From the NCBI GenBank assembly GCA_020439065.1, contig JAGQTK010000001.1:1-55351 (forward strand): a DNA stretch of 55,351 nt, read 5' to 3'. A model generated the notes under the pieces. That model did not search any database. It was not told the DNA's origin and was given only the letters and a program-made list of their open reading frames with translations. The stretch is from Microthrixaceae bacterium (GTDB lineage Bacteria > Actinomycetota > Actinomycetes > Actinomycetales > Microbacteriaceae). This document shows, one piece after another, positions 3,884 through 27,389 of this stretch; positions within the stretch are counted from its first letter, which is position 1, and every line of letters starts with the position of its first letter. The position numbers were made by a program, and so were the translations under genes.

Positions 3884-4207
3884 TCAGGCGCCGGCGAGCC
3901 CTGCGCCGGGTTCGAGGATCTCGCGGAGCGTCGCGAGGTCGATCGCCGTGTCGCCGTCGTCATCGTGTTCGGTGAGCGTGAAGGCGAGCCCGTGCTCGGT
4001 GAGGAAGGCGATCGTCTTCTCGAGGCGCGGTACCGCGGTGATGTGCTCGCGCCCGAACAGTGCGGCGGTGTACAGCGGCTCGCCGGCGAGGATGGCGCGC
4101 CGCAGCTCGGGGGTGGAGCGATCCGTGATGCGGTAGAGCGCCTGCAGCGGCGCGCTCGGCAGATCGGGCGCGCCGTCGAGGGTGAGGGAGATCGAGAGGT
4201 CGCTCAT
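3884..4207 (-). CDS. hypothetical protein (107 aa)
   Basis: Protein-like composition, host-like codon usage, fills the gap between flanking features. Confidence 0.65.
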   Translation of the reverse strand: MSDLSISLTLDGAPDLPSAPLQALYRITDRSTPELRRAILAGEPLYTAALFGREHITAVPRLEKTIAFLTEHGLAFTLTEHDDDGDTAIDLATLREILEPGAGLAGA

Positions 4208-4242
4208 GCGTTCAGTTCACCACAGACCGGGCGGAGACGAAG

Positions 4243-4346
4243 TGAGGGCCGGTCGGAGAGGCTTCCGACCGGCCCTTGTCCCTTTGCACCAAGAGTGTCC
4301 TGCAATCACATGTCCGGGAGCCGTCACAGCGAAAGACTTCCGACAC
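4243..4346 (-). ncRNA. putative ~100-nt structured small RNA or 5' leader of the 3884-4207 gene
   Basis: Minus-strand -10 TAGAGT (4352-4357); imperfect 5' stem (4310-4346); perfect 13-bp 3' stem AGGGCCGGTCGGA/TCCGACCGGCCCT (4245-4276). No family recognised. Confidence 0.5.
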
Positions 4347-4366
4347 GAAGCACTCTATAACAGTCC

Positions 4367-4395
4367 GATAACGAAGGGAAGGGTTTTTCGTTATC
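4367..4395. promoter_or_regulatory. inverted repeat GATAACGAA-N11-TTCGTTATC (operator and/or transposon target site)
   Basis: Perfect 9-bp arms overlapping the putative promoter; ends 17 bp before the transposon target duplication. Confidence 0.5.
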
Positions 4396-4417
4396 TCGTT
4401 GTGATCGCTCGTCTTGT

Positions 4418-4500
4418 TGTCCTGTCTCACCGGATCTGTAGAAATCTCATCTACCTGTAGAACGTCTCATCGGAGTTGTAGATTCTCACCCGAGTTGTAG
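4418..4500 (+). repeat. tnsA-proximal transposon end with four contiguous TnsB-type binding sites
   Basis: TCTCACCGGATCTGTAG (4425), TCTCATCTACCTGTAG (4445), TCTCATCGGAGTTGTAG (4465), TCTCACCCGAGTTGTAG (4484); about 20-bp spacing. Confidence 0.88.
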
Positions 4501-4611
4501 CTCGGCGGCGTGTTGTCGGTTCCGCGCCAGACAGCGGAGTAACTTTCGCGTCAAGTCAGGACCCGCACCGCGGAACACCTCCGCGGACTCCGGGGCCGAA
4601 CGGAGTCCGCA

Positions 4612-5355
4612 ATGACGCTGACAACCAACTGGCTTCAGGCGATCGATGGAACGAACGCCCTGGCGGCCACAATTCGATACTCGCTTCACGGGTTCGCTCG
4701 AGAATTGACACCGGCGGACGCTGGGGCGATCGCCTTCGAAGAGACGGCACCCGTCCGGAAATTCCCGGACTACCCACACAAGCGCAACGTTGAAGGCCGC
4801 TTCTGGCTCGCCTCGACGGGCCAGCACGTGCCCTTCGAGTCGTTCTGGGAGCGGGCGTTCCTGATGAGTCTCGATCGAACCCGGAGTGCGGAGGCGGTGT
4901 CGAGTCAGCCCATGTGGATTCATTGGCGCAGCCCGAAACGCCGCCATGCCCCCGACTACTTCGTTCGTCGCAAGGACGGCAGCGCGCTGCTTGTCGACGT
5001 CAGGGAGAGGTCAGACATCGAACCGGAGGATGCCGCAAAGTTCGAGCTCACCCGGAGGATGGCAGCTGCTCTCGGATGGGACTACCTCGTTTTCGACGAT
5101 CTACCCGGAGCGACCCAACAGAACCTGAGGTTTCTGCTGCGCTACCGTGACCCCCAGTGGCTCGAGGGCGTGGTTCTGGACGACCTGCCGGATTCTGGAA
5201 CGATTCGACTCGTCGACCTCGTCGCCCTCTTGGGAGACGTGAAGAACAGCGCACTTGGAGCGGCATACGCCCTTATATGGTCCGACGTCGCTCGATGCGA
5301 TCTCAGCCGTCCGCTGAGCATGTCCGCCACGGTCCGATTCGGGGTAGACCGATGA
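4612..5355 (+). CDS. tnsA: TnsA-like heteromeric transposase endonuclease subunit
   Basis: FESFWE, SQP and HAPDYF...LLVDVR PD-(D/E)xK-type motifs; first gene of the tns operon. Confidence 0.88.
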   Translation: MTLTTNWLQAIDGTNALAATIRYSLHGFARELTPADAGAIAFEETAPVRKFPDYPHKRNVEGRFWLASTGQHVPFESFWERAFLMSLDRTRSAEAVSSQPMWIHWRSPKRRHAPDYFVRRKDGSALLVDVRERSDIEPEDAAKFELTRRMAAALGWDYLVFDDLPGATQQNLRFLLRYRDPQWLEGVVLDDLPDSGTIRLVDLVALLGDVKNSALGAAYALIWSDVARCDLSRPLSMSATVRFGVDR

Positions 5356-7364
5356 TCGTCCATCCTGGCGACGTGGTGAGATGGAAGGACGAGGACCTGC
5401 AAGTCGTCGCTGTTCGGGCGACCTACACCACGCTGCGCAACGCAGAGATGGGCGAGGATCTCGAAGTGCTGAACGCCGATCTCGCTGAACGCGGCGAGCC
5501 GGCAACAGTGAGGTCGACGACCGACGTTTTGGATTTGGGCGTCCTTGACGAGCTCCCGCCCGCCGACCGCAGAGTCGTGGATGTCTGGCTCGAAGAGCTC
5601 GATCGACTCGCAGACCTCCTCGAAGGTGGGATGAAGAAGACGCCCGCCCACCAGGTGACCGTTGACCATGTGAATCGGCGACTTGGTACGGACTACAACG
5701 CGATAAAGGTGACGCGGCAGCTCGCCGCTCTCGACGAGTTCGGAGTCGCCGGGCTTCTCGATCGACGCCGATTCGGGATGGCGGACAGGCCCCGGTCGAC
5801 ACAGGATCCGCGTCTCATCGAAGCGATCGTCTCTGCGATGGATGGACAGACTCGAGCCTCAACCGGCACGGCAGACCGTCTGATCTGGATCGTGGAGCGG
5901 GACCTCGAGACCCGATACGGCAAAGGCGCGGTCGAGGTGCCGAGCAGGTCGACGATCTATCGCCTGATGGAACGCTTGGAAGCCGGACGGCACACATTCG
6001 GAACGGCGCGTACGCGCAGGACGACGGCAAACCAACCCAGCCACGTCTTCGGCAGTCGAACCGGTATGCGCCCCGGCGAGCAGGTACTGATCGACACGAC
6101 GCCGATGGAGATCCTCGTCGACTGCGACGGGGAGCAGGTACGTCCTGACCTCACGATCCTGCTCGACGAGTGCTCGCGAAGTGTTCCGGGGGCGATCGTG
6201 ACGATCGGCACGCGCAGCATCGATCTCGTTGTCCTGCTCGCCCGCGCTCTCGTCCCGTACGCCTACCGGCCCGAGGGCGTTCGCGCCAACCGTCGAAACA
6301 TCGCCCAAGCCTGGGTGGGAGACGACGCCCTCATTGCGCAACGCTTCGAGGACGCACGCGACGCGCAACAGTACATCTTCCCCGAGACCATCACCACAGA
6401 CCGAGGAGCATCCTATGTGTCGAGACACTTCACCGATGCATGTCGCACACTCGGCATCTCCCTGAACCTCGCGGCGGCATACACGCCTACTCAAAAGGCA
6501 AAGATCGAGCGCATGTTCCGCACGATCAAGAACCGCTTCACGCAGTACGTGGTCTCTTTTCTCGGCGAAAGCGCCGACATGCGCGGCGACGAGAGGTTCC
6601 CGACCGACCGGCTGCTCACGCTCGAACAACTGCAGGAGCTCCTCGAAGACTGGATCGCGGCAATCTGGCAGAACCGCCCCCACGGCTCGCTACGGGACCC
6701 ACGCCACCCGAAGTTCAAGCTCAGCCCGAATCAGATGGTGAGCGCATACCGGCAAGCCGTCCCCGAGCTGCTGATCCCACTCACCGCCGATCACTACATC
6801 GCACTGCTCCCAAAGAAATGGCGTGGAATCCATCACTACGGAGTGAACCTCGACCTCCGACGATACGACTCCGAAGCGCTGGGCACCCTGCGCAACAAGC
6901 GATCGCCTGATCGCCGGCACGCGGGTCAATGGCCGATTCACGTCGATCCATACAACCCCATGATCGTCTGGCTCCAACTCGAAGACGAGTTCATCCCCCT
7001 CAGCTGGCGATCCCCGTACTCGAATATGCCGATGGCCGATGAGATCTGGCGAATCGCACGCGCACAAGCCGCAGCGCGCGGTGAGGAAGCCCCGACGAAT
7101 GACGACCTGAACGAGGTCCTCCGCCGCTTCATGAGCACCGGCAACAAGTCCCTTACCTCACGCGATCGCAAGCGCGCGAAGTCGAACATGACAGACCCGC
7201 TCGGGATCACCAACCAGCTGGCGACGCTCTCCCCAGCATCTACGGACTCGGAGCGAGAGATCGCGCCGACCAGCAGCGACGACTCGACCGAAGAGGCTGG
7301 TGCATCCAGCTGGCCGGTGGCGCCTCCGTTCGGGCTCACGCGTCAAGCGGAAGGAACTGAGTGA
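5352..7364 (+). CDS. tnsB: TnsB-like DDE transposase (Mu-type C-terminal domain)
   Basis: ATGA overlap with tnsA; HTH PSRSTIYR; catalytic motifs LIDTT / TDRG / KIERMF; WQNRPH. Confidence 0.92.
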   Translation: MIVHPGDVVRWKDEDLQVVAVRATYTTLRNAEMGEDLEVLNADLAERGEPATVRSTTDVLDLGVLDELPPADRRVVDVWLEELDRLADLLEGGMKKTPAHQVTVDHVNRRLGTDYNAIKVTRQLAALDEFGVAGLLDRRRFGMADRPRSTQDPRLIEAIVSAMDGQTRASTGTADRLIWIVERDLETRYGKGAVEVPSRSTIYRLMERLEAGRHTFGTARTRRTTANQPSHVFGSRTGMRPGEQVLIDTTPMEILVDCDGEQVRPDLTILLDECSRSVPGAIVTIGTRSIDLVVLLARALVPYAYRPEGVRANRRNIAQAWVGDDALIAQRFEDARDAQQYIFPETITTDRGASYVSRHFTDACRTLGISLNLAAAYTPTQKAKIERMFRTIKNRFTQYVVSFLGESADMRGDERFPTDRLLTLEQLQELLEDWIAAIWQNRPHGSLRDPRHPKFKLSPNQMVSAYRQAVPELLIPLTADHYIALLPKKWRGIHHYGVNLDLRRYDSEALGTLRNKRSPDRRHAGQWPIHVDPYNPMIVWLQLEDEFIPLSWRSPYSNMPMADEIWRIARAQAAARGEEAPTNDDLNEVLRRFMSTGNKSLTSRDRKRAKSNMTDPLGITNQLATLSPASTDSEREIAPTSSDDSTEEAGASSWPVAPPFGLTRQAEGTE

Positions 7365-8455
7365 TGTTCGACGATCTGCTCGCCCAGTTCGACTTCGATG
7401 CCCCGACCGTGAACTTCGACTACACGACGAAGGAAGGATGGCGAGAGTTCGTCGAGTTCGATGCTCCACGACCCGCGCCTTGCACCATGAGCGAGTACGA
7501 AGCGATGGCCTCATCGGATCGATCCATCTACAACATCGCTCGCGAGCGCTTCATGTCAGTGGGTGCCCGTATCGCCACACCCTCACTTCGGAGATTCGTT
7601 GCGGCAGCCAGCAGCGCGATGGCCGACAATCGCTCGCCCGACGCGAGCAAATCCGGCGTCGTCATCTCCGGACGACCCAGCACGGGGAAGACGACGGCCG
7701 TCCAAGAATTCGGGCGAGCATATGAACGAGCTCGGCGAGAACGGGCAGGTACTCGAAGAAAGGACCTGATCCCCGTCGCTTTCGCTCAGGTGCCCACGCA
7801 CGCGACCGAGAAGACGATGATGAAAAAGCTTGCGGAGTTCTACGCGCTTCCGTTCTCTCAGACAGCATCGTACGAAACGCTGCTGGGGCGGGTGAGTAAC
7901 GTGATGCGAGCCTGTGAGACCGAGATCGTCATCATCGACGACATCCATCGCCTCGATCTGCGCTATCGCGCGAGCGAACAAGCGGCGGACGCGCTCAAGG
8001 AACTCTCGGAACGCTGCCCCGGAACGATGATCTACGCCGGAGTCAACGTCGCGCAGAACGGGCTCTTCTGGGGGTCGCGGGGAGAACAGATCATGGCCAG
8101 ATTCGAGACTGTCCAGTTCGACGAATATGACGTCGCAACAAACGAGGGAGCTGCGGTCTGGGGACGAGTCCTCACTGAACTTGAAGACTCGCTCTGTCTC
8201 ATCCGTCAGCATGAAGGCGACATTCTGAAGATTGCCGCGGAGCTTCGCGAAATCTCACGAGGATCGCTGGGACGCATGGCCAAGGCGATTCGCCGTTGCG
8301 CTCGCGATGCGATTCGTGATCGTTCCGAACAACTCGACCTGGACCATCTCCTGGTGGTTCTCGAGACGATACGGCGACTCGAAGATCGCGTAGCCGACGA
8401 AGCGGCACAGAGCACACGACGACCACGAGGGCGACGGGTGAAGGCTGGCCGATGA
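7361..8455 (+). CDS. tnsC: TnsC/TniB-like AAA+ ATPase
   Basis: Walker A GRPSTGKT, Walker B IIIDDIH; overlaps the tnsB stop. Confidence 0.9.
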   Translation: MMFDDLLAQFDFDAPTVNFDYTTKEGWREFVEFDAPRPAPCTMSEYEAMASSDRSIYNIARERFMSVGARIATPSLRRFVAAASSAMADNRSPDASKSGVVISGRPSTGKTTAVQEFGRAYERARRERAGTRRKDLIPVAFAQVPTHATEKTMMKKLAEFYALPFSQTASYETLLGRVSNVMRACETEIVIIDDIHRLDLRYRASEQAADALKELSERCPGTMIYAGVNVAQNGLFWGSRGEQIMARFETVQFDEYDVATNEGAAVWGRVLTELEDSLCLIRQHEGDILKIAAELREISRGSLGRMAKAIRRCARDAIRDRSEQLDLDHLLVVLETIRRLEDRVADEAAQSTRRPRGRRVKAGR

Positions 8456-9408
8456 GAGTGCTGCCGGCGACGGTCAGTCCGTTCCCGGGCGAAACCGTGC
8501 GGAGCCTTTACAACAGGCTCGTCGAACGCAACTCCCTGACGGCCGGAGAACTCTGGACCGCCATCCGCAAGTCGAAGCAGGGGCTTCCGTTGCGGACAAC
8601 GCCGGAGGCCGCCCCGGACGTGGTCGCGCAACTCGACGATCTGCCAGCGAACTGGTTCGACCGAGACGACACCACCCACCGACTCTTCAGCCGCTGCATC
8701 CACAACAACTGGGCCCGCGCGCAATGCCCGCGCTGTTCCCCGCTTCCCAAGCCGGTCACGATGTGTCGGCGGTGCTCGAGCGGGATGAACGTCGAGGTCC
8801 AATCTCGGGCCGGCGCCTTCTGCGCACGCCATAAGCGTTGGCACCGTGACGGACGCGACGAGGCGATCAGGATCCCCGTCGTATATGCCCGAGCAGAAAG
8901 ATGCCTCACCGGAACTCTATGGGCGCGTGGGATCGGCCTCGACACGGGCGAGATCGAGCTCGCCGGCGAAATCATCTCGACCTACCGTGAACTCGTCGAC
9001 GACGCTCTCTCCATCGGCGGCGCCGAGCAGCACATGCGTGACTTCTATCCTGAGGCTGTCGAACTGACCGCATTCCTCACGGCGCCTTCGATGCAGGCGT
9101 TCCTTCGCAACAGACAGATCGGGCACCTTCCCGTCGCCGCGATGGTCGAGGCAGCTGCGACGGCAGTCGCGTCGCGATCGCGGAACCAACTCGGCTCCGT
9201 GAATGAAATGTTCCAGGCCTCCGGCCGTGAACTACGACTCGGTGATTCAGCAACCAAGCCCCTGCGGCACGGGCGATCCCTTGAGATGGGGGCACTCGGC
9301 GTCCTGATCCGTGACAATGTCCCTCGCATTCGAGCGGTCTTTCTGCGCCACGACGACGCTCGTCGTCTATTGCCGACATTGCGCGACCAACCTTCACGCC
9401 ATCGATAG
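8452..9408 (+). CDS. tniQ: TniQ-like target selector 1
   Basis: N-terminal LPATVSPFPGETVRSLYNRL; Cys/His clusters CIH, CPRC, CRRC, CARH; follows tnsC. Confidence 0.75.
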   Translation: MRVLPATVSPFPGETVRSLYNRLVERNSLTAGELWTAIRKSKQGLPLRTTPEAAPDVVAQLDDLPANWFDRDDTTHRLFSRCIHNNWARAQCPRCSPLPKPVTMCRRCSSGMNVEVQSRAGAFCARHKRWHRDGRDEAIRIPVVYARAERCLTGTLWARGIGLDTGEIELAGEIISTYRELVDDALSIGGAEQHMRDFYPEAVELTAFLTAPSMQAFLRNRQIGHLPVAAMVEAAATAVASRSRNQLGSVNEMFQASGRELRLGDSATKPLRHGRSLEMGALGVLIRDNVPRIRAVFLRHDDARRLLPTLRDQPSRHR

Positions 9409-9413
9409 ACGCG

Positions 9414-10460
9414 ATGCGTACCCTGCCCATTTACGTCGCCCCGGTGCCCGCCGAAACGGTCAGTGGCTATATCGGGCGCATCGCCCAGACGCACTGCCTG
9501 GAGGTTGGGGAGATTCGTCGCATGCTGATTCGAGAGGCGGAGCGTTCAACGTGGAGAGAAAACGATCCACGCATCACGCTCGCGCTCGCCCGGCTCTGCG
9601 GCCTGCCCGATGATGCACTCGAGGTGTCCTTCGAAGACCACGGGATGTGGACTCGCTGCGGTCATCCGCGCTGGAAGCCCCAGAAGTGCCCGCGGTGCCG
9701 CACGCTCGCCGAACCACGCACTGCCTGCGTGGAATGTGCCGGTGGACTCACAACCACTACCCGAGCGAGAAGCGGACCTCTCTGCCTGAAGCATGGCCGT
9801 TGGACGCTTCGCGGACTGGACACCAAGGTCTCCGTTGAGGCGTCCGCGAGCCACGCGGAAGAGACCCTGCGCGGACCACTGTGGGAGCGCGGCATCGCCT
9901 TGCACACCGGCGAATACAACCTCGCGGCCGCAGCGGTACTCGCGTGGTCCCAAGGAAGTGACGGTGAGACGTTCCTCGAGGAGCGGGCCCAACGGCTCGG
10001 CCTCCCTGCACCGACCACGTTTGAGGAGGTGATGCTATGTGCCTATCCCGAAGTAGTGAGAGTTGTCGAAGTCGCCATGAGCCCACGGATACTCCGCGGC
10101 GTCCTCCAGGTGTCGCGATCGGCACTGCCGCAGATCGATGGCTTCGCGAACGTCATCGCAACTGTGCTGGGTGCAACCGTAAACGAGCGACTGCACGACT
10201 GGGCGGGCGCCGTCATCGGGCACGCGCACCGCGCGGTCCTCTACGCTGCGGGGCTCAGGCGAACCACGAGCGCCAAGAACGCTCTATGCCCGCAAGATCG
10301 CGCGCTCATCGTCGCGTCCGGTACTCAACGGGCATGCCTGCTCCGACACGTCTCGCCACGAATACTGGACGGACTCATGCGAGGCCACACTGAGGGCACA
10401 TCGCGGCTGAGCGTGACCAGAAGATATCCCCTGGAACCAGATGAGTTGGCTCTGCCCTGA
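9414..10460 (+). CDS. tniQ: TniQ-like target selector 2 (paralogue of 8452-9408)
   Basis: LPIYVAPVPAETVSGYIGRI; CGH, CPRC, CVEC, CLKH; shares LW.RGI.L.TGE and YPE.V with selector 1. Confidence 0.75.
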   Translation: MRTLPIYVAPVPAETVSGYIGRIAQTHCLEVGEIRRMLIREAERSTWRENDPRITLALARLCGLPDDALEVSFEDHGMWTRCGHPRWKPQKCPRCRTLAEPRTACVECAGGLTTTTRARSGPLCLKHGRWTLRGLDTKVSVEASASHAEETLRGPLWERGIALHTGEYNLAAAAVLAWSQGSDGETFLEERAQRLGLPAPTTFEEVMLCAYPEVVRVVEVAMSPRILRGVLQVSRSALPQIDGFANVIATVLGATVNERLHDWAGAVIGHAHRAVLYAAGLRRTTSAKNALCPQDRALIVASGTQRACLLRHVSPRILDGLMRGHTEGTSRLSVTRRYPLEPDELALP

Positions 10461-10648: not shown

Positions 10649-12056
10649 GGTGACGTCCCGCTGAGTGGTGGAGAATCTCAACACCGTGCGGTCAGTGCTT
10701 TTTGATTATGCCGCGTTGAGTTCCGGGATCGCCACCTCCTCGTCGTTCGCGAACAGGAGCTTCATGGAGTGTTCGCTGAAGTAGCGGCGGTCGGCGCCGT
10801 CCCATTCGTCGTGCTGCTCGATCAGGACGTGCCCTGCGAGGCGCAGCAACGCGGCGGGGTTCGGGAATGTGCCGACGACGTCGGTGCGGCGTTTGATCTC
10901 CTTGTTCACGCGTTCCAGGGGGTTCGTGGACCAGATCTGCCGCCAGTGCTGTTGCGGGAATCCGCAGAACGCGAGGATGTCATTCTTCGCGTCCTCGAGC
11001 ATGTCCGCGATCTTCGGATGTGACCGGGTCAGCATCCGGACGACTTCGTGGAACTGGGCGAAGACGTGCTCGGTGTCTGGTTAGGCGAAGATCGTGCGGA
11101 TGATCGAGGCGACCATCGGACCTGACGCTTTCGGGACGTTGGAGAGCACGTTGCGCATGAAATGCACCCGACACCGTTGCCAGGAAGAGCCAGCGAACAC
11201 GGTCTCGATCGCGGAGATCAGACCCGTGTGGGCGTCGCTGATGACGAGCTTCACACCATCGAGTCCGCGGGCCTTCAAAGAACGCAGAAAGCTCGTCCAG
11301 AACGGCTGCGATTCGGTCTCTCCAACCTCGAAACCCAAGACCTCGCGGCGCCCATCGGCGGCGACACCAATGGCAACGACAACGGCCTGAGAGACCACTC
11401 GCCGGCCAACCCTGGCTTTGCAGTAGGTCGCGTCGAGAAACACATACGGATAGGTCGTGTCAGCCAGCGCACGGTCACGGAATGCGGCAACGTCCTCGTC
11501 CAGGTTCGCGCAGATCCGTGACACCTCGGACTTGCTGATCCCGGTATCGGCGCCGAGAGCTTTGACGAGATCATCGACCTTTCTCGTGCTCACGCCGTGA
11601 ACATAGGCCTCCATCACCACCGCAAACAGTGCCTGATCGACGCGGCGGCGCCGCTCCAGCAGCGAGGGGAAGAAGGACCCCTGTCGCAGCTTCGGGAGCC
11701 GCAACTCCAGGTCCCCGGCCGTCGTGGTCAGGGTGCGCGGGCGGGTGCCATTGCGTTGCGTGATTCGCTCAGCGCTGCGCTCGAATGGGGCGGCGCCGAT
11801 GAACGCGGCCGCTTCCGCATCGATCAGTTCCTGATAGAGCGTTTCGGTCGCGACACGGATCCGGTCGGTGACATCGGTGAGTTTCAGCTCCCCGAGAAGC
11901 TCGAGGAGGGCAGACTGGTCTAGAGCCATCGTGCTTTGTGTCTTTCTGTGAGAGAACTTTGATCGGTACTTCTCACTGACCATCGCACGATGGCTCACCC
12001 ACGTCTACGACGCAAACAACCCTGCCGAATCCTCCACCACTCCACGGGACGTCACC
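10649..12056 (-). mobile_element. IS256-family insertion sequence
   Basis: Terminal inverted repeats GGTGACGTCCCG..GAGTGGTGGAG; 8-bp TSD CTTCCTGG at 10641-10648 and 12057-12064. Confidence 0.93.
10706..11929 (-). pseudogene. IS256 transposase with an internal nonsense codon
   Basis: Mutator-type motifs (FLDATY, ISDAH, WQRCRVHF, STNPLERVNKEIKRR); in-frame TAA at 11081-11083 in IFA*PDT, likely CAA>TAA. Confidence 0.88.
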
Positions 12057-12277: not shown

Positions 12278-12835
12278 GTGCTGCCCATCCCGATGACAGG
12301 CGGTCGCGTCGCGGGAAGGCCCGTGCAAGCGACCGCGATTGTGATGGTTGACATGCCCGAGTCGTACCCGATCTGGTGGCAGGAAATCGACTCGCCGCCG
12401 CCAGCCGAGTGGCTGTTCATGTTCGAGGACTTCACCAGTGACGACACGGCAGAGCAATGGGCGCTGGCCGCGGCGATCTTCATCGCCCAAACTCGCCGCC
12501 GCACAGCCGCAGGCCCCACATTCGCTGAACTCTTCACATACCTCTTGCCGGACACAGACGGGCTCCCCGGCCCGCTGCCGCGAAACCTAGACTTCATGCA
12601 GCGCCGCCGCGCCGTTGCGGGCTTCCGCGGCCACGCGGCAATCGAATGGCGCCGGCGAGGAATGATCAGCTTCGACAACGGCGTCATGCGCAGCCTGCGC
12701 GTGGGACGCGAGTTTCGCGAGCGGTCGAGGCATCGCCAACAGGCCCGGGAAGCCACACGCCATCAGTGCGAAACCGATCGCGAACCGAGCTCGGAACTCA
12801 CGGTCATGACCGCCATCACGGAACGAGAAGGTTAA
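12278..12835 (+). CDS. hypothetical protein with LexA-like winged-helix features (start uncertain)
   Basis: GPTFAELF...WRRRGMISFDNGVMRSLRV resembles the LexA N-terminal DNA-binding domain; no peptidase domain. Confidence 0.6.
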   Translation: MLPIPMTGGRVAGRPVQATAIVMVDMPESYPIWWQEIDSPPPAEWLFMFEDFTSDDTAEQWALAAAIFIAQTRRRTAAGPTFAELFTYLLPDTDGLPGPLPRNLDFMQRRRAVAGFRGHAAIEWRRRGMISFDNGVMRSLRVGREFRERSRHRQQAREATRHQCETDREPSSELTVMTAITEREG

Positions 12836-13121: not shown

Positions 13122-14003
13122 TCAGGCTGCCAGCGCGAGCTGGCGTCGTTCGTACTCTAACGGGCTGAGGTAGCCGATGCTCGAGTGGCGTCGGCGAGCG
13201 TTGTACCAGCCGTCGATCCAGACGTAAGCGCCGCGTCGAGCGGCGTCGATCGTGGCGAAGGTGTGCCGGTGGTAGTACTCGTTCTTGAACGTGGACCAGA
13301 ACGATTCCGCGGCGGCGTTATCCCAGCACACCCCGGTGCGACCCATCGACCGCAGCACGCCAAGCTCCTTCGCTGCTTTCGCGAGCTGCGCGCTGGTGTA
13401 CTGGGTGCCTCTATCTGCGTGGAAGATCACCTTCCGCGGCAGGTGACCGCGCAGCGCGACCGCCTGGCGCAGTGCGTCTTCGACGAGGTCGGTATGCAGA
13501 CTGTCAGCGACAGTCCGGCCGAGGACGCGGCGGGTGTTCCCGTCCCTGACGACACACAGAAACGCCCATCCCTCACCGGTATGCAAATACGTGATGTCGG
13601 AGAACCAAGCGACGTCGCGTTCGCCCCTGTCGAACTGCCGCTCCACCAGGTCGGGAACCGGGAACGGATCCTCACCATGGACGGTCGTCGGTGGATGCCA
13701 AGTGGCGGGGCTGATCCCCGTGACGCCGTCTGCCTGCATGAGTTTCGCGACCGTCTTGCGCGAGACCACCACCCCGGCGTCCTGCAGATCTGCATGGATT
13801 CTTGGCGCCCCATAGGTCCCGTCGGACGCGGCATGGAACTCGCGGATCCGCACCGTCAGGTCCGCGGCTCGCTGCTGCCGTGGCGACGGGCCGGCAGCTA
13901 TCCGGGTCCGCCACTCGTAGTACCGGCGCCGGTCCACCCCGAGCAGCGCACACATCCGTGTCACCGTTATCGTCGTCTGTTTGGCCTTCTCCGCCTCGAT
14001 CAC
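13122..14003 (-). CDS. IS3 transposase OrfB (rve integrase core)
   Basis: YGAPRI, WFSDITY, HADRGTQY, DNAAAESFW, YNARRRHS. Confidence 0.92.
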   Translation of the reverse strand: MIEAEKAKQTTITVTRMCALLGVDRRRYYEWRTRIAAGPSPRQQRAADLTVRIREFHAASDGTYGAPRIHADLQDAGVVVSRKTVAKLMQADGVTGISPATWHPPTTVHGEDPFPVPDLVERQFDRGERDVAWFSDITYLHTGEGWAFLCVVRDGNTRRVLGRTVADSLHTDLVEDALRQAVALRGHLPRKVIFHADRGTQYTSAQLAKAAKELGVLRSMGRTGVCWDNAAAESFWSTFKNEYYHRHTFATIDAARRGAYVWIDGWYNARRRHSSIGYLSPLEYERRQLALAA

Positions 14004-14314
14004 CGCGAACCGCTCCTCGGGTTCTGCTTCGATGCGAAGAAGGCCGCCGCTTTTCCCAGGAACTCGTTGTCCATCCGCAGATCCTGATTCTCGCGGCGTA
14101 ACCGTTCCAGCTCGGCGCGCTCGTTCAGATCCAGCAACGTGTCGGTCTCAACGCCTGTGCGCGCTCGTTCGGCGTGCACCCACCGGCCCAACAGTTGCTC
14201 ACCGACGCCGATCTCGCGCGCTACCGCCGCGACGGTCCGGCCCGTGTCGATCACCAGACGCGCAGCCTCACGGCGATACTCCGGCGTGTATGTCTTTCTC
14301 TTGCTCGTGCCCAT
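14000..14314 (-). CDS. IS3 transposase OrfA (HTH); probable -1 frameshift into OrfB
   Basis: YTPEYRREAARLV HTH; ELERLRREN zipper; GGGAAAA slippery-like site at about 14051-14057. Confidence 0.9.
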   Translation of the reverse strand: MGTSKRKTYTPEYRREAARLVIDTGRTVAAVAREIGVGEQLLGRWVHAERARTGVETDTLLDLNERAELERLRRENQDLRMDNEFLGKAAAFFASKQNPRSGSR

Positions 14315-14391
14315 CAAGGACATCCTCCCCGACAGGCCCGCAAACACACGGATCCCGCCTGGTCAATGTCCGGAATCCGGGGGCAACCTCA

Positions 14392-17250: not shown

Positions 17251-17351
17251 CTGACAACTCGGGTGAGACAGATTGGCGGTCGCGTCAGCGATTCCGCGTG
17301 ATTCCGGTGATCGTTCGTCTCATCTGATGACGACTCTCGCGAGAACGGACA
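17251..17351 (-). repeat. internal copy of the tnsA-distal transposon end
   Basis: CTGACAACTCGGGTGAGACA, TGATTCCGGTGATCG and CGCGAGA.CGGACA are shared with 27280-27384. Confidence 0.85.
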
Positions 17352-17379
17352 TCAGCGACTGTCCTGTCCCCTGGGACCG

Positions 17380-17434
17380 CCCCGAGCTGCTGATCCCGCG
17401 CACCGTCGATCACTACATCGCGCTGCTCCCAAAG
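17380..17434 (+). pseudogene. 55-bp tnsB fragment
   Basis: 51/55 identical to 6761-6815 (PELLIP.T.DHYIALLPK). Confidence 0.85.
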
Positions 17435-17694
17435 TCGTTCGAGACGGCAACAATGCGCGGGCGCGGGCGCGGACCGTCCGCCGGCTGGCGCTTTCCGGTC
17501 GACTACCCCAAACAGCGGTGCTCACCATCGCCGACCCCAAAGCGTCGGTCTTCGCGCAAATGCGCCAGAACCTCAATGCGGTCGGCGTGCACACCGATGA
17601 CCTTCGCACGAGATCCGGACCCGAGCAACCACCTGCGTGTCGAGCTGAGGGCTGCCGTCGATGCCCGACTCCTGCAAACGAGTCAGCGACGGCC

Positions 17695-17732
17695 GGGGAG
17701 GCCGGCCCTGCGGGGAGGCGGCTTCCCCTTTT
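17695..17732 (+). terminator. putative intrinsic terminator
   Basis: GGGGAGGCCG...CGGCTTCCCC stem followed by TTTT; next to the 3' end of the 17750-18940 gene. Confidence 0.45.
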
Positions 17733-17749
17733 GCGTCGAGACGAGGGGA

Positions 17750-18940
17750 TCAGGTCGTGAGCGGGTGCTCGGCGTGGCTCACGCCGGCCCGAAGGCGACG
17801 TCCGGGCAGGTTGAGCCAGGTGAGTGCGAGTCCCACGATCGTCCAGATGCCGAGAAGAAGCCATTGATTGGCGACGGCCGCGTCGGGGAAGTACGACAGG
17901 TTGCGGATGAGCGTCGCTGCGGCTCCCGGCGGCAGCCACTGGCCGATCGCGCCCCATGGGGATGCGATGAATTCGACCGGGACGGCGGCCGCCGAGAGCG
18001 GGTTCGCCACCAGCATCATGAAGGCGGCACCGACACCGGATCCGGCGGGGCCGATGAGGCCTGCGAGTCCGGTGATCGTGCTGGCGATGGCGGCGATGGC
18101 GAGCCCGAGAGCCGCGCTGTTGAGAAGGTAGTTGCCCTGCAGTGCGCCGAACATCCCCTGCAGCACTCCGGCGAGCACCAGGCCGGCTGCCGCGGCGTAG
18201 ACGACCACGCCGACGATGCGACGACCGCCGCCGCCCTTGAGGAGGGTCGTGAGCCCGATGCCGCCGATCATTCCACCGAGGATGATCGGGAACAGCGCAG
18301 AGGCGAGTCCCGCACCCCGTGAGTCGGTGTCGGCGAACGGCACGATGTCGGTGACCTTGACCGTCACGGTCGGGATCGAGATCGGGGTCGTCGCGCTCGC
18401 GTCCGGAAGCTGGGGAGCCTGGCCCTGCAGTGCCGCCTGGATCGCTGCCTGCATCGCGGCTGCGGCCTTCTCCTGGGCTGCAGCGAGGTTGCTCTCGACC
18501 GTCGTGCGGATCTGAGTGTCGATCTGCGTCTGCAGCTGCTGCGAGAGGCCGTCCATGAGCTGTGCGACCTGGGCATTCGCTGCCGTCGCCTTCAGGATCT
18601 CGGGAGCGTCGGTGGGCGTGGCGCCGAGGACGATCGCGCCATAGGCGTGACGCTCCTTGATCGCCTTCACCGCGGCGTCCCGGTCGTCGTACTGGGTGAG
18701 GGCGATCGCGCCGTCGGACTGCTCGGCGACGGCATCGCCCATCTGCTCGACCTGCGCGGACGTGCCCACGATGCCGACCGGCAGGTCGTGGGGCGACGCC
18801 GTGACCGCGGGCCAGGCGAAGGCAAGAAGCACGATGCCGACGATGAGGGACAGGGCGACGGCGATGATCGGCACGCGGATCCACGGCGTCGCAGCGCTCG
18901 CCTCGGGATCGACGACCGGTGAAGCGGTGTCGGTGGTCAT
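17750..18940 (-). CDS. ABC-2/YhgE-like membrane protein (permease)
   Basis: N-terminal TM, PHDLPVGIVG, extracytoplasmic domain, about 5 C-terminal TMs, WLPPGA. Confidence 0.75.
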   Translation of the reverse strand: MTTDTASPVVDPEASAATPWIRVPIIAVALSLIVGIVLLAFAWPAVTASPHDLPVGIVGTSAQVEQMGDAVAEQSDGAIALTQYDDRDAAVKAIKERHAYGAIVLGATPTDAPEILKATAANAQVAQLMDGLSQQLQTQIDTQIRTTVESNLAAAQEKAAAAMQAAIQAALQGQAPQLPDASATTPISIPTVTVKVTDIVPFADTDSRGAGLASALFPIILGGMIGGIGLTTLLKGGGGRRIVGVVVYAAAAGLVLAGVLQGMFGALQGNYLLNSAALGLAIAAIASTITGLAGLIGPAGSGVGAAFMMLVANPLSAAAVPVEFIASPWGAIGQWLPPGAAATLIRNLSYFPDAAVANQWLLLGIWTIVGLALTWLNLPGRRLRAGVSHAEHPLTT

Positions 18941-18959
18941 GGGGAAGCTCCTTTAAAAA

Positions 18960-18973
18960 CGAATGATCGTTCG
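18960..18973. promoter_or_regulatory. putative TetR operator
   Basis: Near-palindrome CGAATGATCGTTCG in the divergent intergenic region, next to TATACT (18975-18980). Confidence 0.5.
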
Positions 18974-19020
18974 CTATACTGAACCTTAGTACGATGATTG
19001 TCAACCTGGAGCCGGAGACG

Positions 19021-19659
19021 ATGCCGAAGATCAGTGACGAGCAACGCGACGCGAGACGCACCGAGATCATGAATGCTGCGCTGCGTTGCTTCGTGCGCTC
19101 GGGATACCAGCAGACCTCGATGGCCGACATCATCGCCGAGTCGGGGCTGTCCGCCGGCGCGATCTACAGCTACTTCTCGAGCAAGCAGGAACTCATCCGC
19201 GACGTCGCCGCCGGCGTGTTGGCGAACCGGCGCAGCGAACTCATCGCCGCGCAGCAGGATCACGTCCTGTCTCCGGCGGAGATCATCACGACGATCGCCG
19301 CCGGCTTCGGCAAGGACGCCCCGATCGAAGCACTGATCCAGACCTGGGCCGAAGCCACGGTCGATCCGGAGGTGCGAGATCTCGTGTTGAATGCGCTTGC
19401 CACGATGCGGACGGTCATCGTCGGCGCGCTGGCTCGGTGGGCAGAGAGCTTGCCCCGGCTGCCGGAAGGATGGGCCTCGGCTGAGGACTGGGCCGAGGTG
19501 AGTGCACCTGTGTTGATGAGCGTCCTGCCCGGCTTCGCCCTGCAACGCGCCATCGTCCCCGGATTCGACACCGCCCGCTTTCTCGACGCGCTCCCGACGT
19601 TGCTTCCGGGCCGCCCCGTACTGGCGACACGTTCTCACGCACCATCGCTGCCTGACTGA
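19021..19659 (+). CDS. TetR/AcrR-family regulator
   Basis: TSMADIIAESGLSAGAIYSYFSSK HTH. Confidence 0.92.
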   Translation: MPKISDEQRDARRTEIMNAALRCFVRSGYQQTSMADIIAESGLSAGAIYSYFSSKQELIRDVAAGVLANRRSELIAAQQDHVLSPAEIITTIAAGFGKDAPIEALIQTWAEATVDPEVRDLVLNALATMRTVIVGALARWAESLPRLPEGWASAEDWAEVSAPVLMSVLPGFALQRAIVPGFDTARFLDALPTLLPGRPVLATRSHAPSLPD

Positions 19660-19685
19660 GTCGGCAGCACTGAAAGGAGACGACG

Positions 19686-20366
19686 ATGAGGTTTCTGCTC
19701 CGCCACTGGTACGACCTGGGTCTCGCGCTCGCGATCGCCACTCTCGTGTGGCAGGCGTTCGCACAATATGACGGGCTTCGCCTGATCCTGCTGCTGAACC
19801 TCGTGGTGATCTCCCTCCATCAGTACGAGGAGTATCACTGGCCCGGGGGAGGCCCGTGGATGATCAACGTGGTTCTCGGCACGAAAGACGCCACGGTCGA
19901 CAGATACCCGCTGAACCAGCTCAACGCGTTGCTGAACAACTTCGTCCTGTGGCTCCTCTACCTGCTGCCCGTGATCTGGCCTGAGACGATCTGGCTCGGC
20001 CTCGGCGCGGTCCTCGTGGGTTTCGGCCAGCTGTTCGCGCACGGCGTGCAATGCAACATCAAGCTCAAGACCTGGTACAACCCCGGGCTCGCCACCGTCA
20101 TCATCGGCCACGTCCCGCTGGGTATCTGGTACCTCGTGGAGGTGTACCGCAACGACCTCATCAGCGGATGGGACTGGGTCGGGGCCATCGCCTACGTCCT
20201 GGTCGTCATGGGGATCATCGTCGGGGTGGGGTTCGTTCTGATGGGCAACAAGACCTCCCCTCATCCGTTCGCACGAGAGGAACTCGTCAGGTCGAACGCG
20301 GTGCGGCACCTCACCCGACTGGGGATCGCTCTGCCCGAAGCGCTGCTCCCCGAGTCGCATGCTTGA
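19686..20366 (+). CDS. HXXEE-domain membrane protein
   Basis: LHQYEEY motif, FAHG, YNPGL; multiple TMs; RBS GAAAGGAG. Confidence 0.85.
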   Translation: MRFLLRHWYDLGLALAIATLVWQAFAQYDGLRLILLLNLVVISLHQYEEYHWPGGGPWMINVVLGTKDATVDRYPLNQLNALLNNFVLWLLYLLPVIWPETIWLGLGAVLVGFGQLFAHGVQCNIKLKTWYNPGLATVIIGHVPLGIWYLVEVYRNDLISGWDWVGAIAYVLVVMGIIVGVGFVLMGNKTSPHPFAREELVRSNAVRHLTRLGIALPEALLPESHA

Positions 20367-21420
20367 GCTGGCAGAGCAGTTGCTCCCGATTCTGCACGCG
20401 GGAACGCGCGTCGCGGCGATCTCGGTGACGAGGGTCGCCCAAAGTGCGCCTCGCGGCGTCGGGGCGAGCATGGCGGTGACGGCTGACGGGAAGGTCATCG
20501 GCTCCATCTCCGGTGGCTGCGTCGAAGGCGACGCCGTCATGCTGGGACTGAGGGTTCTGCGCGAGGGGATCGGGCGGACCGCGAGTTTCGGGTTCGATGA
20601 CGAAGCCGCCCACGCCGCCGGGCTCGCGTGCGGCGGTGCGATCGACGTCGTCGTCTATCCCGTCACGCGGGAGCATGTCCCGATTCTCGAGCGAGTCGTC
20701 GACGGCGAGGCGGCAGCGATCGGTGTCTACGCTTCCGGCCCTCGGTGCGGCCAGACGGTGATGAGTCCGCCTGCGTTCGCCGCATCCGCTGTCGCGGGGC
20801 GCGAGAGCGTGCTGTTTCCCGCCGAGAACGAGCAGGCCGCCGATCTTCTGCTGCTTTCACGAGCGCCGCGTCCCCGGCTCATCATCCTCGGCGCCGGGGA
20901 GCATGGGGCTGCACTCTGTCGGATCGCTGCGGCCGCGGGCTACGCGGTATCGGTCTGCGACGCGTGGGGCACGCTCGTGACGCGCGACCGGTTCCCTGAC
21001 GCCGAGCAGCTCATCATCGACCTGCCGCACGAATATCTGGCCACGCTTAGGCCCGGGGATGTCGATGCGCGCACGGCGGTCTGTGTCCTCACGCACGACG
21101 AGCGAGTCGACATCCCCGCGCTGCAGCTCGCGTTGAGGATGCCCGTCGGGTTCGTTGGCGCGCTGGGTGCGCGTCGAACGGCGGCCCATCGGGAAACCGT
21201 GCTGCGACGATCAGGTCTGGATGAAGACGCGATCGCGCGGCTCCACTCGCCACTGGGGCTCGACCTCGGCGGATCCAGTCCCGTCGAGACTGCGCTGTCG
21301 ATCCTCGCTGAGATCACTTCTTCTCGGTACGCCGGGTCGGGGCTACCGCTTCGTGACCTTTCGGGTTCTCTGCATCATGACGTCGGCATCGAAGCGGATA
21401 GCCGGAGGCTGGTCGGATGA
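20359..21420 (+). CDS. xdhC: XdhC/CoxI-family molybdenum-cofactor chaperone
   Basis: GSISGGCVE, GLACGG, LTHD, LHSPLGLDLG. Confidence 0.9.
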   Translation: MLELAEQLLPILHAGTRVAAISVTRVAQSAPRGVGASMAVTADGKVIGSISGGCVEGDAVMLGLRVLREGIGRTASFGFDDEAAHAAGLACGGAIDVVVYPVTREHVPILERVVDGEAAAIGVYASGPRCGQTVMSPPAFAASAVAGRESVLFPAENEQAADLLLLSRAPRPRLIILGAGEHGAALCRIAAAAGYAVSVCDAWGTLVTRDRFPDAEQLIIDLPHEYLATLRPGDVDARTAVCVLTHDERVDIPALQLALRMPVGFVGALGARRTAAHRETVLRRSGLDEDAIARLHSPLGLDLGGSSPVETALSILAEITSSRYAGSGLPLRDLSGSLHHDVGIEADSRRLVG

Positions 21421-22028
21421 GCACGCGCGATTCAGATGCAACAGCTCCTCGGCTGTGCGGACTCGTCCTCGCAGCCGGGGCCGGCCGCCGCTACGGTGTG
21501 CCGAAGGCTCTGGTCCGCGATTCCGACGGCACGCCGTGGCTCACGCGTGCCGTCGACGCACTCCGACAGGGCGGATGCGATGACGTGGTGGTCGTGCTCG
21601 GCGCGCAAGCCGAAGAGGCCCGGAAGCTTGTGCCGGACCGAACGATGATCGTGCCCATCGAGGGTTGGCCGGAGGGGATGGCGGCGAGTCTGCGCGCCGG
21701 TCTGTCGGATCCCTCGTGCCGGGCAGCAGATGCCGTCGTCGTCATGCCGGTGGACACGCCGGATGCTTCTCCCCGCGCACTTCATCGGCTTGTCGCAACT
21801 TCGGCGTCGCGCACGCGCAATGCCCTTGCGCAGGCGACCTATGGCGGGAACCCTGGACATCCGGTGCTTCTCGGTCGAGATCATCTCGACGACATCGTGC
21901 GCATGCTGCACGGCGACGCGGGAGCCCGGGAGTACTTGGTCGCTCATGGCGTGTGCGAGGTCGAATGTGGGGATATCTGGTCGGGCGATGACGTCGACGT
22001 TCCTGTCGGTGCCGGGGTTCCGGGATGA
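21417..22028 (+). CDS. molybdenum cofactor cytidylyltransferase (MocA-like)
   Basis: LVLAAGAGRRYG.PKAL, GMAASL, PVDTP, GHPVL, GDAGAR. Confidence 0.88.
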   Translation: MSTRDSDATAPRLCGLVLAAGAGRRYGVPKALVRDSDGTPWLTRAVDALRQGGCDDVVVVLGAQAEEARKLVPDRTMIVPIEGWPEGMAASLRAGLSDPSCRAADAVVVMPVDTPDASPRALHRLVATSASRTRNALAQATYGGNPGHPVLLGRDHLDDIVRMLHGDAGAREYLVAHGVCEVECGDIWSGDDVDVPVGAGVPG

Positions 22029-22576
22029 CGTCGAAGATCGGGGTCGAGATGCAGGACGTGGTGCTGTCGGTGAACGGCGAGACGCATGCGCTCACGGTGG
22101 ATCCGCGCGAGAGCCTGCTCGACGTCCTCCGCGAGCGGGTCGGATTGACCGGGAGCAAGAAAGGCTGCGATCAGGGTGCGTGCGGTGCATGCACGGTGCT
22201 GGTCGACGGCGTGCGCACCGCCAGCTGCCTGGCGCTGGCCGTGCAGTACGGCGACGGACGTGCGATCACCACGATCGAAGGTGTCGGCGATTCCGAGAAT
22301 CCGCACCCGATGCAGCGGGCGTTCGTCGCACGGGACGGGTTGCAATGCGGGTACTGCACGCCCGGGCAGATCTGCTCAGCCATCGGGATGCTCGCAGAGT
22401 TCCAGGCGGGATGGCCGAGCGTCGTCACCGCCGACATCTCCGCTGGTCCCGAGCACCTCGACGATGGTGAGATCAGAGAACGGATGAGCGGCAACCTGTG
22501 TCGCTGCGGAGCACACAACGGCATCGTCGACGCCATCCGAGACGTCGCCACCGAAGCGGGGAGCGTCGCCCCGTGA
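22025..22576 (+). CDS. xanthine-dehydrogenase-family 2Fe-2S subunit (PaoA/YagT-like, no Tat signal seen)
   Basis: KKGCDQGACGAC, QCGYCTPGQ, GNLCRC. Confidence 0.93.
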   Translation: MTSKIGVEMQDVVLSVNGETHALTVDPRESLLDVLRERVGLTGSKKGCDQGACGACTVLVDGVRTASCLALAVQYGDGRAITTIEGVGDSENPHPMQRAFVARDGLQCGYCTPGQICSAIGMLAEFQAGWPSVVTADISAGPEHLDDGEIRERMSGNLCRCGAHNGIVDAIRDVATEAGSVAP

Positions 22577-23568
22577 AGACTTTCACGTTCTCCCGCGCCG
22601 CCGACACGGACTCGGCACTGCACACCCTGGCGCAGCCGGGAACGCGGGCTCTTGCGGGTGGCACGAATCTCGTCGACCTGATGCGCCGGGGAGTGGAGCG
22701 ACCGGACGGCATCGTCGACATCACCTCGTTGCCCCTCTCCGACGTGGCCGAACTCCCCGACGGGTCGATCCGCATCGGCACCACCGTGCGCAACAGCACT
22801 CTCGCGGCGCACCCCCTCATCCGGGAGAGATATCCCCTGCTGAGTCGGGCGCTCCTGTCCGGGGCATCGGGTCAGATCCGCAACATGGCTACCGTGGGCG
22901 GCAACCTTCTGCAGCGCACCCGTTGCCTGTACTTCATGGACGTCGAATCAGGGGTGGGGTGCAACAAGCGCGAACCGGGCAGCGGGTGCGGGGCGCGAGG
23001 CGGGTTCCAGCGTGATGCCGCGATCTTCGGTGCCAGCGACCAGTGCATCGCCGTGCACCCCTCCGATATGGCGGTCGCACTGGCGGCCCTCGACGCCGTG
23101 GTCGAGGTGCAGAGCACGACCGGCATCCGGCGGGTCCCCATCGGGGACTTGCATCGCCTCCCCGGGGACATGCCGCAGCTCGACACCACGCTCGATCCCG
23201 GAGAGCTGATCATCGCGGTCGAGCTGCCTCCGGCGATCTCGGCCCGATCGACCTATCGAAAAGTGCGCGATCGAGCCTCTTTCGCGTTCGCCCTGGTTTC
23301 TGTGGCAGCCGTTCTCGTCATCGAGGATGGCCAGATCACGGCAGCGCAGATCGCTCTCGGTGGCGTCGCGTCGCAGCCGTGGCGGGCGCGGGAGGCGGAA
23401 CGGGCGCTGATAGGAGCGGAGCCGACGAGAGACGGCTTCCGGCGCGCTGCCGACGCAGAACTCGCCGCGGCTGAAGGGCTTCCCGGCAACATGTTCAAGA
23501 TCGAACTTGCCAGACGAACCCTAGTGAGCGTTCTCGCAGAGCTCGCCGCCGAGGAGTCGGAGCGATGA
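22573..23568 (+). CDS. xanthine-dehydrogenase-family FAD subunit (PaoB/YagS-like)
   Basis: AGGTNLVD, ASGQIRNMATVGGNL, Cys-rich insert, YRKVRDRASFAF. Confidence 0.92.
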   Translation: MKTFTFSRAADTDSALHTLAQPGTRALAGGTNLVDLMRRGVERPDGIVDITSLPLSDVAELPDGSIRIGTTVRNSTLAAHPLIRERYPLLSRALLSGASGQIRNMATVGGNLLQRTRCLYFMDVESGVGCNKREPGSGCGARGGFQRDAAIFGASDQCIAVHPSDMAVALAALDAVVEVQSTTGIRRVPIGDLHRLPGDMPQLDTTLDPGELIIAVELPPAISARSTYRKVRDRASFAFALVSVAAVLVIEDGQITAAQIALGGVASQPWRAREAERALIGAEPTRDGFRRAADAELAAAEGLPGNMFKIELARRTLVSVLAELAAEESER

Positions 23569-25829: not shown

Positions 25830-25888
25830 TCGTCGTTCAACCCACCAAAGGAAGCGCCGCCACGCGGCATCGACACACGGAGGTACTG

Positions 25889-27279: not shown

Positions 27280-27384
27280 CTGACAACTCGGGTGAGACAA
27301 ATCAAAGCAGGAGGGCGTTCGAGATCTCGGATGATTCCGGTGATCGCGCGTCTCACTTCGTGACAGTTGTCGCGAGATCGGACA
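27280..27384 (-). repeat. tnsA-distal end of the Tn7-like element
   Basis: Spaced inverted TnsB-type sites; ends GAGATCGGACA followed by TSD CTTGT. Confidence 0.88.
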
Positions 27385-27389
27385 CTTGT

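Follow-up and report, generated by a model that had tools for sequence, protein, structure and literature searches.

Introduction

In transposons of the Tn7 family, TniQ proteins mark the target and a ring of TnsC sets the distance to the insertion (PMC11014353, PMC11406308; all sources are cited here from excerpts). The attachment sites named in this excerpted literature are glmS, tRNA genes, parE, nrdB, nrdD, comM, ffs, guaC, yciA, rsmJ, yhiN, and res, and each of these falls in a gene body, at a 3′ end, or at a recombination site. The literature drawn on comprises 10.1101/2021.08.23.457393, PMC10293859, PMC8334368, 10.1101/2024.11.13.623437, 10.1101/2025.07.27.667033, PMC9881144, PMC11406308, PMC11014353, PMC3353115, and PMC5650626. 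The elements considered here come from an Actinobacteria-dominated clade that the excerpts of Benler et al. describe as experimentally uncharacterized. Within these excerpts we found no description of the site or of the RNA reported below, although supplementary material to Benler 2021 and Faure 2023 may list coordinates of these elements. The words Actinobacteria, Microbacterium, and ncRNA do not occur in the main text of PMC10293859, and four sequence words taken from the RNA were absent from the literature searched. Here, we analyze a locus at which a Tn7-like element adjoins the promoter of a predicted small RNA gene, and we compare it with related insertions.

Results

The window, by which we mean the whole 55,351-nucleotide stretch of DNA analyzed, carries a Tn7-like element that spans 4418-27384 and begins TGTCC. 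Its landmarks are as follows.

4413-4417 (+), target-site duplication CTTGT, first copy; a single copy in the pre-insertion allele L249
4418-4500 (+), tnsA-proximal end with terminal TGT and close repeats at 4418, 4437, 4456, 4477, and 4496
4612-5355 (+), tnsA; PF08722 over cut-off
5352-7364 (+), tnsB; rve/rve_3 at or below cut-off, assigned by operon position
7361-8455 (+), tnsC; PF05621, AAA_22
8452-9408 (+), tniQ1, 318 aa; PF06527 below cut-off, assigned by alignment
9414-10460 (+), tniQ2, 348 aa; PF06527, structure model with pLDDT 89.9
17254-17351 (-), inner far-end-type sequence without a flanking CTTGT
27290-27384 (-), far end of the element
27385-27389 (+), target-site duplication CTTGT, second copy
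27390-27480 (+), end of the tnsA-proximal type, left by an older element that had gone into the same nucleotide position

The tns operon, the 5-bp duplication, the repeat-array TGT/ACA ends, and the fixed distance and orientation identify the element as Tn7-like. TnsA, TniB, and TniQ2 scored over the cut-off in the profile search, and the TnsB and TniQ1 matches were weak. L249, a metagenome contig of another host, has the window's exact promoter, one CTTGT, and then positions 27385-28270 at 99.2% identity; it differs from the window in the downstream gene and in the 3′ half of the RNA. As a pre-insertion allele, L249 confirms the duplication and indicates two successive insertions at one nucleotide. 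An ECF sigma factor and then a gene for a probable anti-sigma factor come after the older end at 27390. No transposition genes were seen behind this older end, and the far end of its element was not found from 27390 onward within the window.

Positions 17352-27384 hold ~10 kb of apparently captured DNA (a xanthine-dehydrogenase-like operon, TetR, and an ABC permease) up to the more distal far end; with an inner far end at 17254-17351 that lacks CTTGT, the mobile unit looks composite. By sequence appearance, IS256-like (10706-11998) and IS3-like (13122-14347) insertion sequences also lie inside the element. A 185-aa open reading frame (ORF) at 12278-12835 (+), winged-helix-like by eye and without a Pfam match, is kept at 59 to 89% in ~15 related elements, often together with a small XRE-like ORF on the opposite strand, and both ORFs are likely to encode regulators. 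Among the window ORFs scanned there was no match to cas genes. An ARAGORN call (tRNA-???) at 36439-36523 was rejected as a false positive inside an ABC transporter ORF. Contig C72 of the window's assembly (G000) contains a second ABC-marR-DUF2207 region, 68 to 74% identical, which is either a paralogue or bin contamination.

Beside the first CTTGT lie the predicted RNA gene, its promoter, and a downstream ORF.

3884-4207 (-), 107-aa ORF downstream of the RNA; no Pfam match
4240-4345 (-), conserved small RNA gene of ~105 nt, predicted, with estimated ends
4245-4276 (-), perfect 13-bp 3′ hairpin, likely terminator; two-sided changes in 11/13 pairs
4284-4311 (-), near-invariant linker; candidate pairing or protein-binding region and putative recombination interval of the window allele
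4311-4345 (-), 5′ hairpin with near-invariant loop; two-sided changes in 6/8 pairs
4352-4357 (-), -10 hexamer TAGAGT (TANNNT), read from the sequence
4352-4373 (-), invariant motif CGTTAYC-N4-CGTTATANNNT, a direct repeat of 11-bp period filling the -35/-10 spacer; 88/89 promoters
4367-4395 (no strand), inverted repeat GATAACGAA-N11-TTCGTTATC; distal arm variable among relatives
4375-4380 (-), -35-like hexamer TTCCCT; begins TTG in 35/89 homologues

An earlier note on this DNA had read a minus-strand TAGAGT, a 5′ hairpin, a linker, and a perfect 13-bp hairpin here, with an inverted repeat 18 to 46 bp from the target duplication; all are present at that spacing (the repeat at 4367-4395, CTTGT at 4413-4417). 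The RNA would start ~6 to 7 nt past the -10 box and end past the 3′ hairpin, whose arms fall at 4245-4257 and 4264-4276 (sequence and folding). The linker reads GUGAUUGCAGGACACUCUUGGUGCAAAGGGAC at 4309-4278 on the minus strand, and the loop of the 5′ hairpin is UUUGCUGUGG in relatives versus UUUCGCUGUGA in the window allele. Across 40 chosen homologues, 96.7% of cells pair and 17/26 pairs carry two-sided changes, a level of covariation reached in 0/500 shuffles; relatedness can inflate the shuffle test, but controls in which the alignment was slid keep that relatedness, and in them pairing fell to 25 to 51%. The linker's predicted helix never covaries in these homologues and is uninformative. 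The 5′ hairpin of the window, an unusual allele, is weak when folded alone (z +0.27), and the whole RNA folds with a z of -2.2 in the window versus -3.1 and -5.0 in two relatives.

Window positions 4200-4414 were matched in 22/24 genomes of the genus versus 0/16 of other families, and a 15-nt RNA core (at most 1 mismatch) was found in 118/150 Microbacteriaceae genomes, mostly in single copy. The full RNA was recovered at 28/30 of the core loci returned, the other two being chance matches. Covariance model scores were 74 to 118 bits for family members and at most 36 bits outside the family, where the printed matches (17 + 10) were terminator-like hairpins, two of them behind apparent 5S rRNA. 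The order-level covariance search used model R1, in which two helices were mis-registered, and later searches used model R2. A strict RNA pattern, which also misses the window's own allele, matched 0/291 other genomes of the class. When three alleles were compared with Rfam 15, no family reached threshold; the best was PtaRNA1 (26.2 and 24.7 bits versus a gathering score of 47), and those matches cover the terminator hairpin only. The RNA appears to be an undescribed, Microbacteriaceae-wide family, and the earlier note's inability to assign it to a known one was borne out, as was the conservation it had asked about. The 24 sequencing runs are contigs throughout, and those from RNA libraries run through the RNA promoter. 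A scan for mRNA targets gave a best value of -33.2 kcal/mol, compared to -30 to -34.7 in 12 shuffles, with nothing above the shuffles.

In six runs (X1, X2, X12, X15, X20, and X22), near-identical strains match the window up to position 4314 and then continue with the usual 5′ hairpin. Read against these strains, the window RNA is a chimera with its apparent junction in 4284-4314. L249 shares the 5′ half of the window's RNA, the promoter, and the older island, and has another 3′ half. Recombination in the invariant RNA core is the likely means by which the island passed from one host to another.

The final T of the -10 box is present in 89/89 distinct promoters; because the alignment was anchored on GTTATA, this last T is the only -10 position that counts as a free test. 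The -35-like hexamer lies 17 bp upstream of the TANNNT -10, and a generic sigma-70 and terminator scan returned 0 sites in 4150-4620 (the U-tail is short and the -35 poor). Shuffling of 4331-4420 produced a 9-bp inverted repeat in 20/5000 trials, so that the repeat is more than chance; the exact palindrome occurs at 3/272 loci, two of which are the window itself, and is confined to the window allele. Among the 89 promoters, the distal arm is RTAACG in 49, GTGAYC in 22, and another sequence in 18.

The promoter repeat has the sequence and period of MtrA-type sites, with RTAAC-type half-sites at an 11-bp period in 88/89 promoters, and the motif overlaps the -10 box. In the excerpts cited, the MtrA consensus has matching repeat spacing (PMC3353115, PMC5650626), and at bldD of S. 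coelicolor the MtrA repeat overlaps the -10 box (PMC5650626). The RNA-promoter repeat is unlike the local glnA box (GTAAC-N6-GAAAC) and the local pstS box (GTTCACC), and a Pho box was rejected as the identity of the motif. Exact copies of the GTTAYC-N5-GTTA type number 2 to 4 per genome (reversed control, 0); others lie near sugar-uptake and glycerophosphodiesterase genes, which are not typical cell-wall targets. This genome has a gene (L234) that, from sequence likeness, we take to be MtrA-like. The motif is likely a regulator operator, and the chances seem evenly balanced that a regulator of the OmpR type, for instance MtrA or GlnR, controls the RNA through the promoter repeat.

We surveyed relatives by a TnsC search of 401 Microbacterium genomes, which gave 52 rows at E ≤ 1e-44; 51 were examined (the window included, G484 left out), with TnsC identities of 29 to 100%, and insertion sites were called by reading the DNA upstream of tnsA. 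For 33/51 elements, in 33 genomes, the tnsA-proximal end lies directly upstream of the RNA promoter, with the orientation alike in all 33 (two contig-edge cases show the promoter alone, and L105 has other DNA between the element end and tnsA). Another 6/51 abut another element's end or lie in a tandem-array island, four of them traceable to the RNA; 6/51 gave no clear site call, one across an N gap; and 6/51 were off site (L068, L076, L087, L102, L103, and L107). These observations support the promoter side of the RNA as a recurrent Tn7-like attachment site that the tnsA end faces, much as the earlier note had proposed, and most insertion points of relatives are not at the unrelated loci that would have spoken against it. 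The site is atypical, as that note also suspected: the ends lie upstream of a promoter, not in a gene body or at a 3′ end, and no tRNA genes were present in 60 loci. Dual-TniQ elements do use the site, as anticipated, but not exclusively, since 18 of the on-site elements are dual-TniQ and 15/33 are single-TniQ, in five groups.

Among close elements in other genera, L252 is at the RNA promoter and L253 elsewhere; among distant elements, 0/15 are at it (0/8 weaker TnsC loci and 0/7 distant family loci). Further ends at the promoter, with no nearby TnsC match, occur in G017, G023, G318, G210, G363, G331, G022, and G221. G214, G382, G379, G433, and G492 contain a related element, with no end seen at the RNA promoter. 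Duplications were found at both ends in three relatives (G296, G531, and G264); for six others, no far end turned up in the DNA examined, or the candidate far end did not match. Two candidates from a conditioned pattern search (L273 and L276) were dropped as chance matches with no end arrays, and the sole viral match (L250) was also due to chance.

At the RNA promoter, different Tn7-like elements were seen stacked in arrays of two or three, with later elements cut into earlier ends (G531:C33, with L098, L077, and L111; G264:C15, with L099 and L113; and G296:C1). Two or three RNA copies, usually 1 to 13 kb apart, occur in G003, G009, G011, G016, G246, G296, G379, G382, and L112; in G296, an element end lies upstream of both.

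We compared the distances of element ends from several landmarks. In the closest clade, the TATAACG landmark, which lies at the -10 box, is 52 to 56 bp from the element end (n = 14; SD 1.2; window, 55 bp). Distances in other clades were 52 to 65 bp for 16 sites and 46 to 83 bp overall, a wider spread that is due in part to what earlier insertions left behind. When distances were taken from the RNA core, the SD in the closest clade was 1.9 (n = 14), and the length of the 5′ hairpin correlated with the RNA-core distance at r = 0.81 versus r = 0.34 with the distance from the -10 landmark (n = 14). Because the RNA-core distance varies with hairpin length, the RNA body is disfavored as the target. 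In the closest clade, the distal half-site lies 21 to 25 bp from the end and predicts it as tightly as the -10 box does (SD 1.06 versus 1.19 for the -10 landmark), so distance alone cannot exclude it. An inverted repeat of at least 7 bp is present at 8/14 closest-clade sites versus 0/16 others, and elements 97 to 98% identical in TnsC use hosts with and without the palindrome (the window versus L065 and L066). On these comparisons the perfect palindrome is dispensable for targeting; of the palindromic promoter named as the site in the earlier note, the promoter held up and the palindrome did not.

The RNA is absent from two unrelated plasmid-type sites, pYJNG (L251, with L283 as its empty allele) and G296:C2. 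Each has a single-TniQ-type end at a distance of exactly 60 nt from a -10 in the context GTGATANNNT, whose window equivalent, GTTATANNNT, matches the 60-nt geometry; this plasmid motif was noticed post hoc and from two sites. Their half-site spacing is 9 bp, not 11 bp. Since these plasmid insertions occur without the RNA at an equal distance from GTGATANNNT, the promoter, not the RNA, is the likely target. GTKATANNNT occurs 9 times in the 2.26-Mb window genome, with no element end at the eight other sites. There was no TANNNT at 60 nt for four of six off-site ends, for L253, or for the dual-TniQ end at the G296:C2 site. In L093, L098, and L099, single-TniQ elements are inserted inside the ends of earlier dual-TniQ elements, which argues against recognition of the insertion-point sequence itself. 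The CGTTAYC-N4-CGTTATANNNT motif is thus likely to be the transposon target, and we hold it quite probable that what is recognized is a -10-proximal motif ~43 to 65 bp from the end.

Some off-site elements have surroundings of their own. L087 (G492:C1, ~1.4077 Mb), a related element with a broken tniQ, lies ~50 bp from GCCGATAATGCACATTATGTCA, a sequence that we presume to resemble an actinobacterial dif site, and is possibly a sister lineage with another target. At L076/L102/L279 (G296:C2 and G379:C16), one ~150-bp plasmid-like sequence has a different element on either side, the two facing each other, and the TniQ of the dual-TniQ element at G296:C2 is identical to that of the chromosomal copy in G296, a hint of a second, plasmid-directed pathway. 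In Streptomyces, the distant single-TniQ elements L063 and L064 adjoin a palindromic promoter-like sequence with CGATATATCG and TTGACA, perhaps another promoter-type site.

The model we favor is that a clade of Tn7-like transposons inserts at a fixed distance upstream of the RNA gene with the tnsA end facing it. A compact TniQ would mark the motif at the -10 box predicted for the RNA, and TnsC, acting as a ruler, would place the insertion ~55 bp off, outside the promoter. The site would be a safe harbor that nearly every host offers and in which the RNA gene and its operator stay intact. As a whole, this model of fixed-distance homing to the RNA promoter, with a TniQ-marked motif and a TnsC ruler, is probably correct.

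How TniQ finds the motif is a separate matter. Most TniQ ORFs of relatives are 290 to 410 aa long. In the TniQ2 model, the N-terminal ~115 residues match TniQ chains (8fcu_P, Z 6.6, rmsd 2.4, 71 aligned); residues 160-348 matched no known DNA-binding fold in a whole-model search, which is a weak test of that region, and Foldseek gave no match at E ≤ 0.001. No conserved partner ORF was found behind tniQ (0.2 to 2.7 kb read, ORFs ≥ 90 aa); the commonest, winged-helix-like and at 14 to 16 loci, was not found in single-TniQ groups C and D. A quick tree grouped TniQ2 with the single-TniQ L114 at the promoter site (93% SH-aLRT), and TniQ2 is weakly favored as the promoter-targeting copy. There may be an even chance that TniQ reads the motif directly, through its helical C-terminal half; direct readout is favored because, out of several similar operators and many promoters, chromosomal insertions settle on one site.

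Alternatively, with the same site and ruler, TniQ could be an adaptor that docks on a promoter-bound host protein, either sigma-A RNA polymerase or a regulator of the OmpR type that occupies the direct repeat. We regard this as possible but on the doubtful side. Docking is plausible because the small TniQ, the missing partner ORF, the longer spacing, and the shared -10 all fit an adaptor: the plasmid sites and the RNA promoter have in common the last T of the -10 box, and the near edge of the motif, ~43 bp from the end, is closer to the ~50 bp of CAST elements than to the 30 to 33 nt of TnsD homing to tRNA genes. In the excerpts of Faure et al., small size of TniQ is a hallmark of elements in which a different selector chooses the target, but they also state that TniQ size does not reliably divide direct from indirect selectors (PMC10293859). 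Tn5053 elements, which sense resolvase-occupied res sites, offer a precedent (by a title cited in PMC11406308). Against docking, GTTAYC-N5-GTTA sites number 2 to 4 per genome and promoters number in the hundreds, yet chromosomal insertions concentrate at one site; moreover, the 9-bp half-site spacing of the plasmid sites is a poor fit to a response-regulator dimer. If TniQ were such an adaptor, a Tn7 family would be steered by the host transcription machinery to one small-RNA promoter and its plasmid look-alikes.

Targeting would be unchanged if the RNA were instead a cis-acting leader or attenuator of a downstream gene, ancestrally marR-like. This is improbable. At 36/58 loci, the strand of the RNA also has a marR-like gene within 1.4 kb, often <150 nt away, and folds show an alternative CUCUU/AAGGG helix beside the terminator. 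However, no helix that competes with the terminator covaries, and the marR-like gene has its own leaderless TANNNT 5 to 8 nt before the start codon at 22/33 close loci; at many of the 58 loci it is displaced or separated by other genes. A convergent DUF2207 gene follows the RNA at 5 genus loci, and extra RNA copies precede unrelated genes. The specific proposal of the earlier note, a leader for the 3884-4207 gene, failed, with a homologue of that gene beside the RNA at 0/58 loci. As far as these loci suggest, the RNA is probably a regulatory RNA that acts in trans, independent of its neighbors, with a promoter and a terminator of its own.

Finally, it is very improbable that the elements recognize the inverted repeat (the distal palindrome) or the transcribed RNA sequence: the palindrome lies at the usual distance of a TnsD footprint, comparable to that at glmS in Tn7, and in the closest clade the distal half-site keeps its 21 to 25 bp from the end, but the distal arm varies in sequence across the promoters, near-identical elements occupy hosts that have and that lack the palindrome, and the plasmid sites have neither palindrome nor RNA.

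Discussion

The RNA promoter is a hotspot for island building, occupied in at least 33 of the 401 Microbacterium genomes searched. A promoter would be a different class of Tn7 attachment site, with a candidate target of ~22 bp and a precise ruler distance, and site choice by a small TniQ without a DNA-binding extension or partner becomes directly testable. The promoter is also a candidate neutral integration site and a candidate tool for Microbacteriaceae.

The locus resembles Tn7 at attTn7 in having TnsABC and TniQ, a 5-bp duplication, TGT/ACA ends, and a fixed distance, with the densely repeated end facing the target and the host gene left intact (PMC11406308, PMC11014353). It differs in what is targeted: TnsD sites of Tn7 are the 3′ end of glmS, tRNA genes, parE, and nrdB, whereas here the ends lie on the promoter side of a noncoding RNA gene, and their distance follows promoter landmarks, not a sequence in a gene body or 3′ end. 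In contrast to classic TnsD, the TniQs of 318 and 348 aa have no recognizable long C-terminal DNA-binding extension, and the spacing is longer. The dual tniQ-tnsD elements of Faure et al. 2023 likewise carry two tandem tniQ genes, apparently by duplication (PMC10293859, excerpts). One of those proteins usually exceeds 400 aa, whereas both are ~300 to 390 aa here, and here single-TniQ relatives use the same site.

Other systems share single features. Tn6022 (TniQ and TnsF, at comM) and LoPAST (TniQ and TnsP) also combine a small TniQ with fixed-site insertion; in our elements, however, no conserved partner gene follows tniQ, and the target gene is not disrupted. The res-site hunters of the Tn5053 type have a small TniQ, as here, and could be recruited by a protein encoded apart from the transposition genes, in line with the adaptor alternative. 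Unlike them, the present elements encode TnsA, and their target is a chromosomal promoter, not a resolvase-bound res site. A noncoding RNA gene also serves as the attachment site of type I-F3b CAST at ffs (SRP RNA), but that insertion is directed by a guide RNA; here, no cas gene was seen and the RNA is not SRP RNA. The promoter itself resembles operators of the MtrA/GlnR type in Actinobacteria, with which it shares RTAAC half-sites, an 11-bp period, and overlap with the -10 box (PMC5650626, excerpts).
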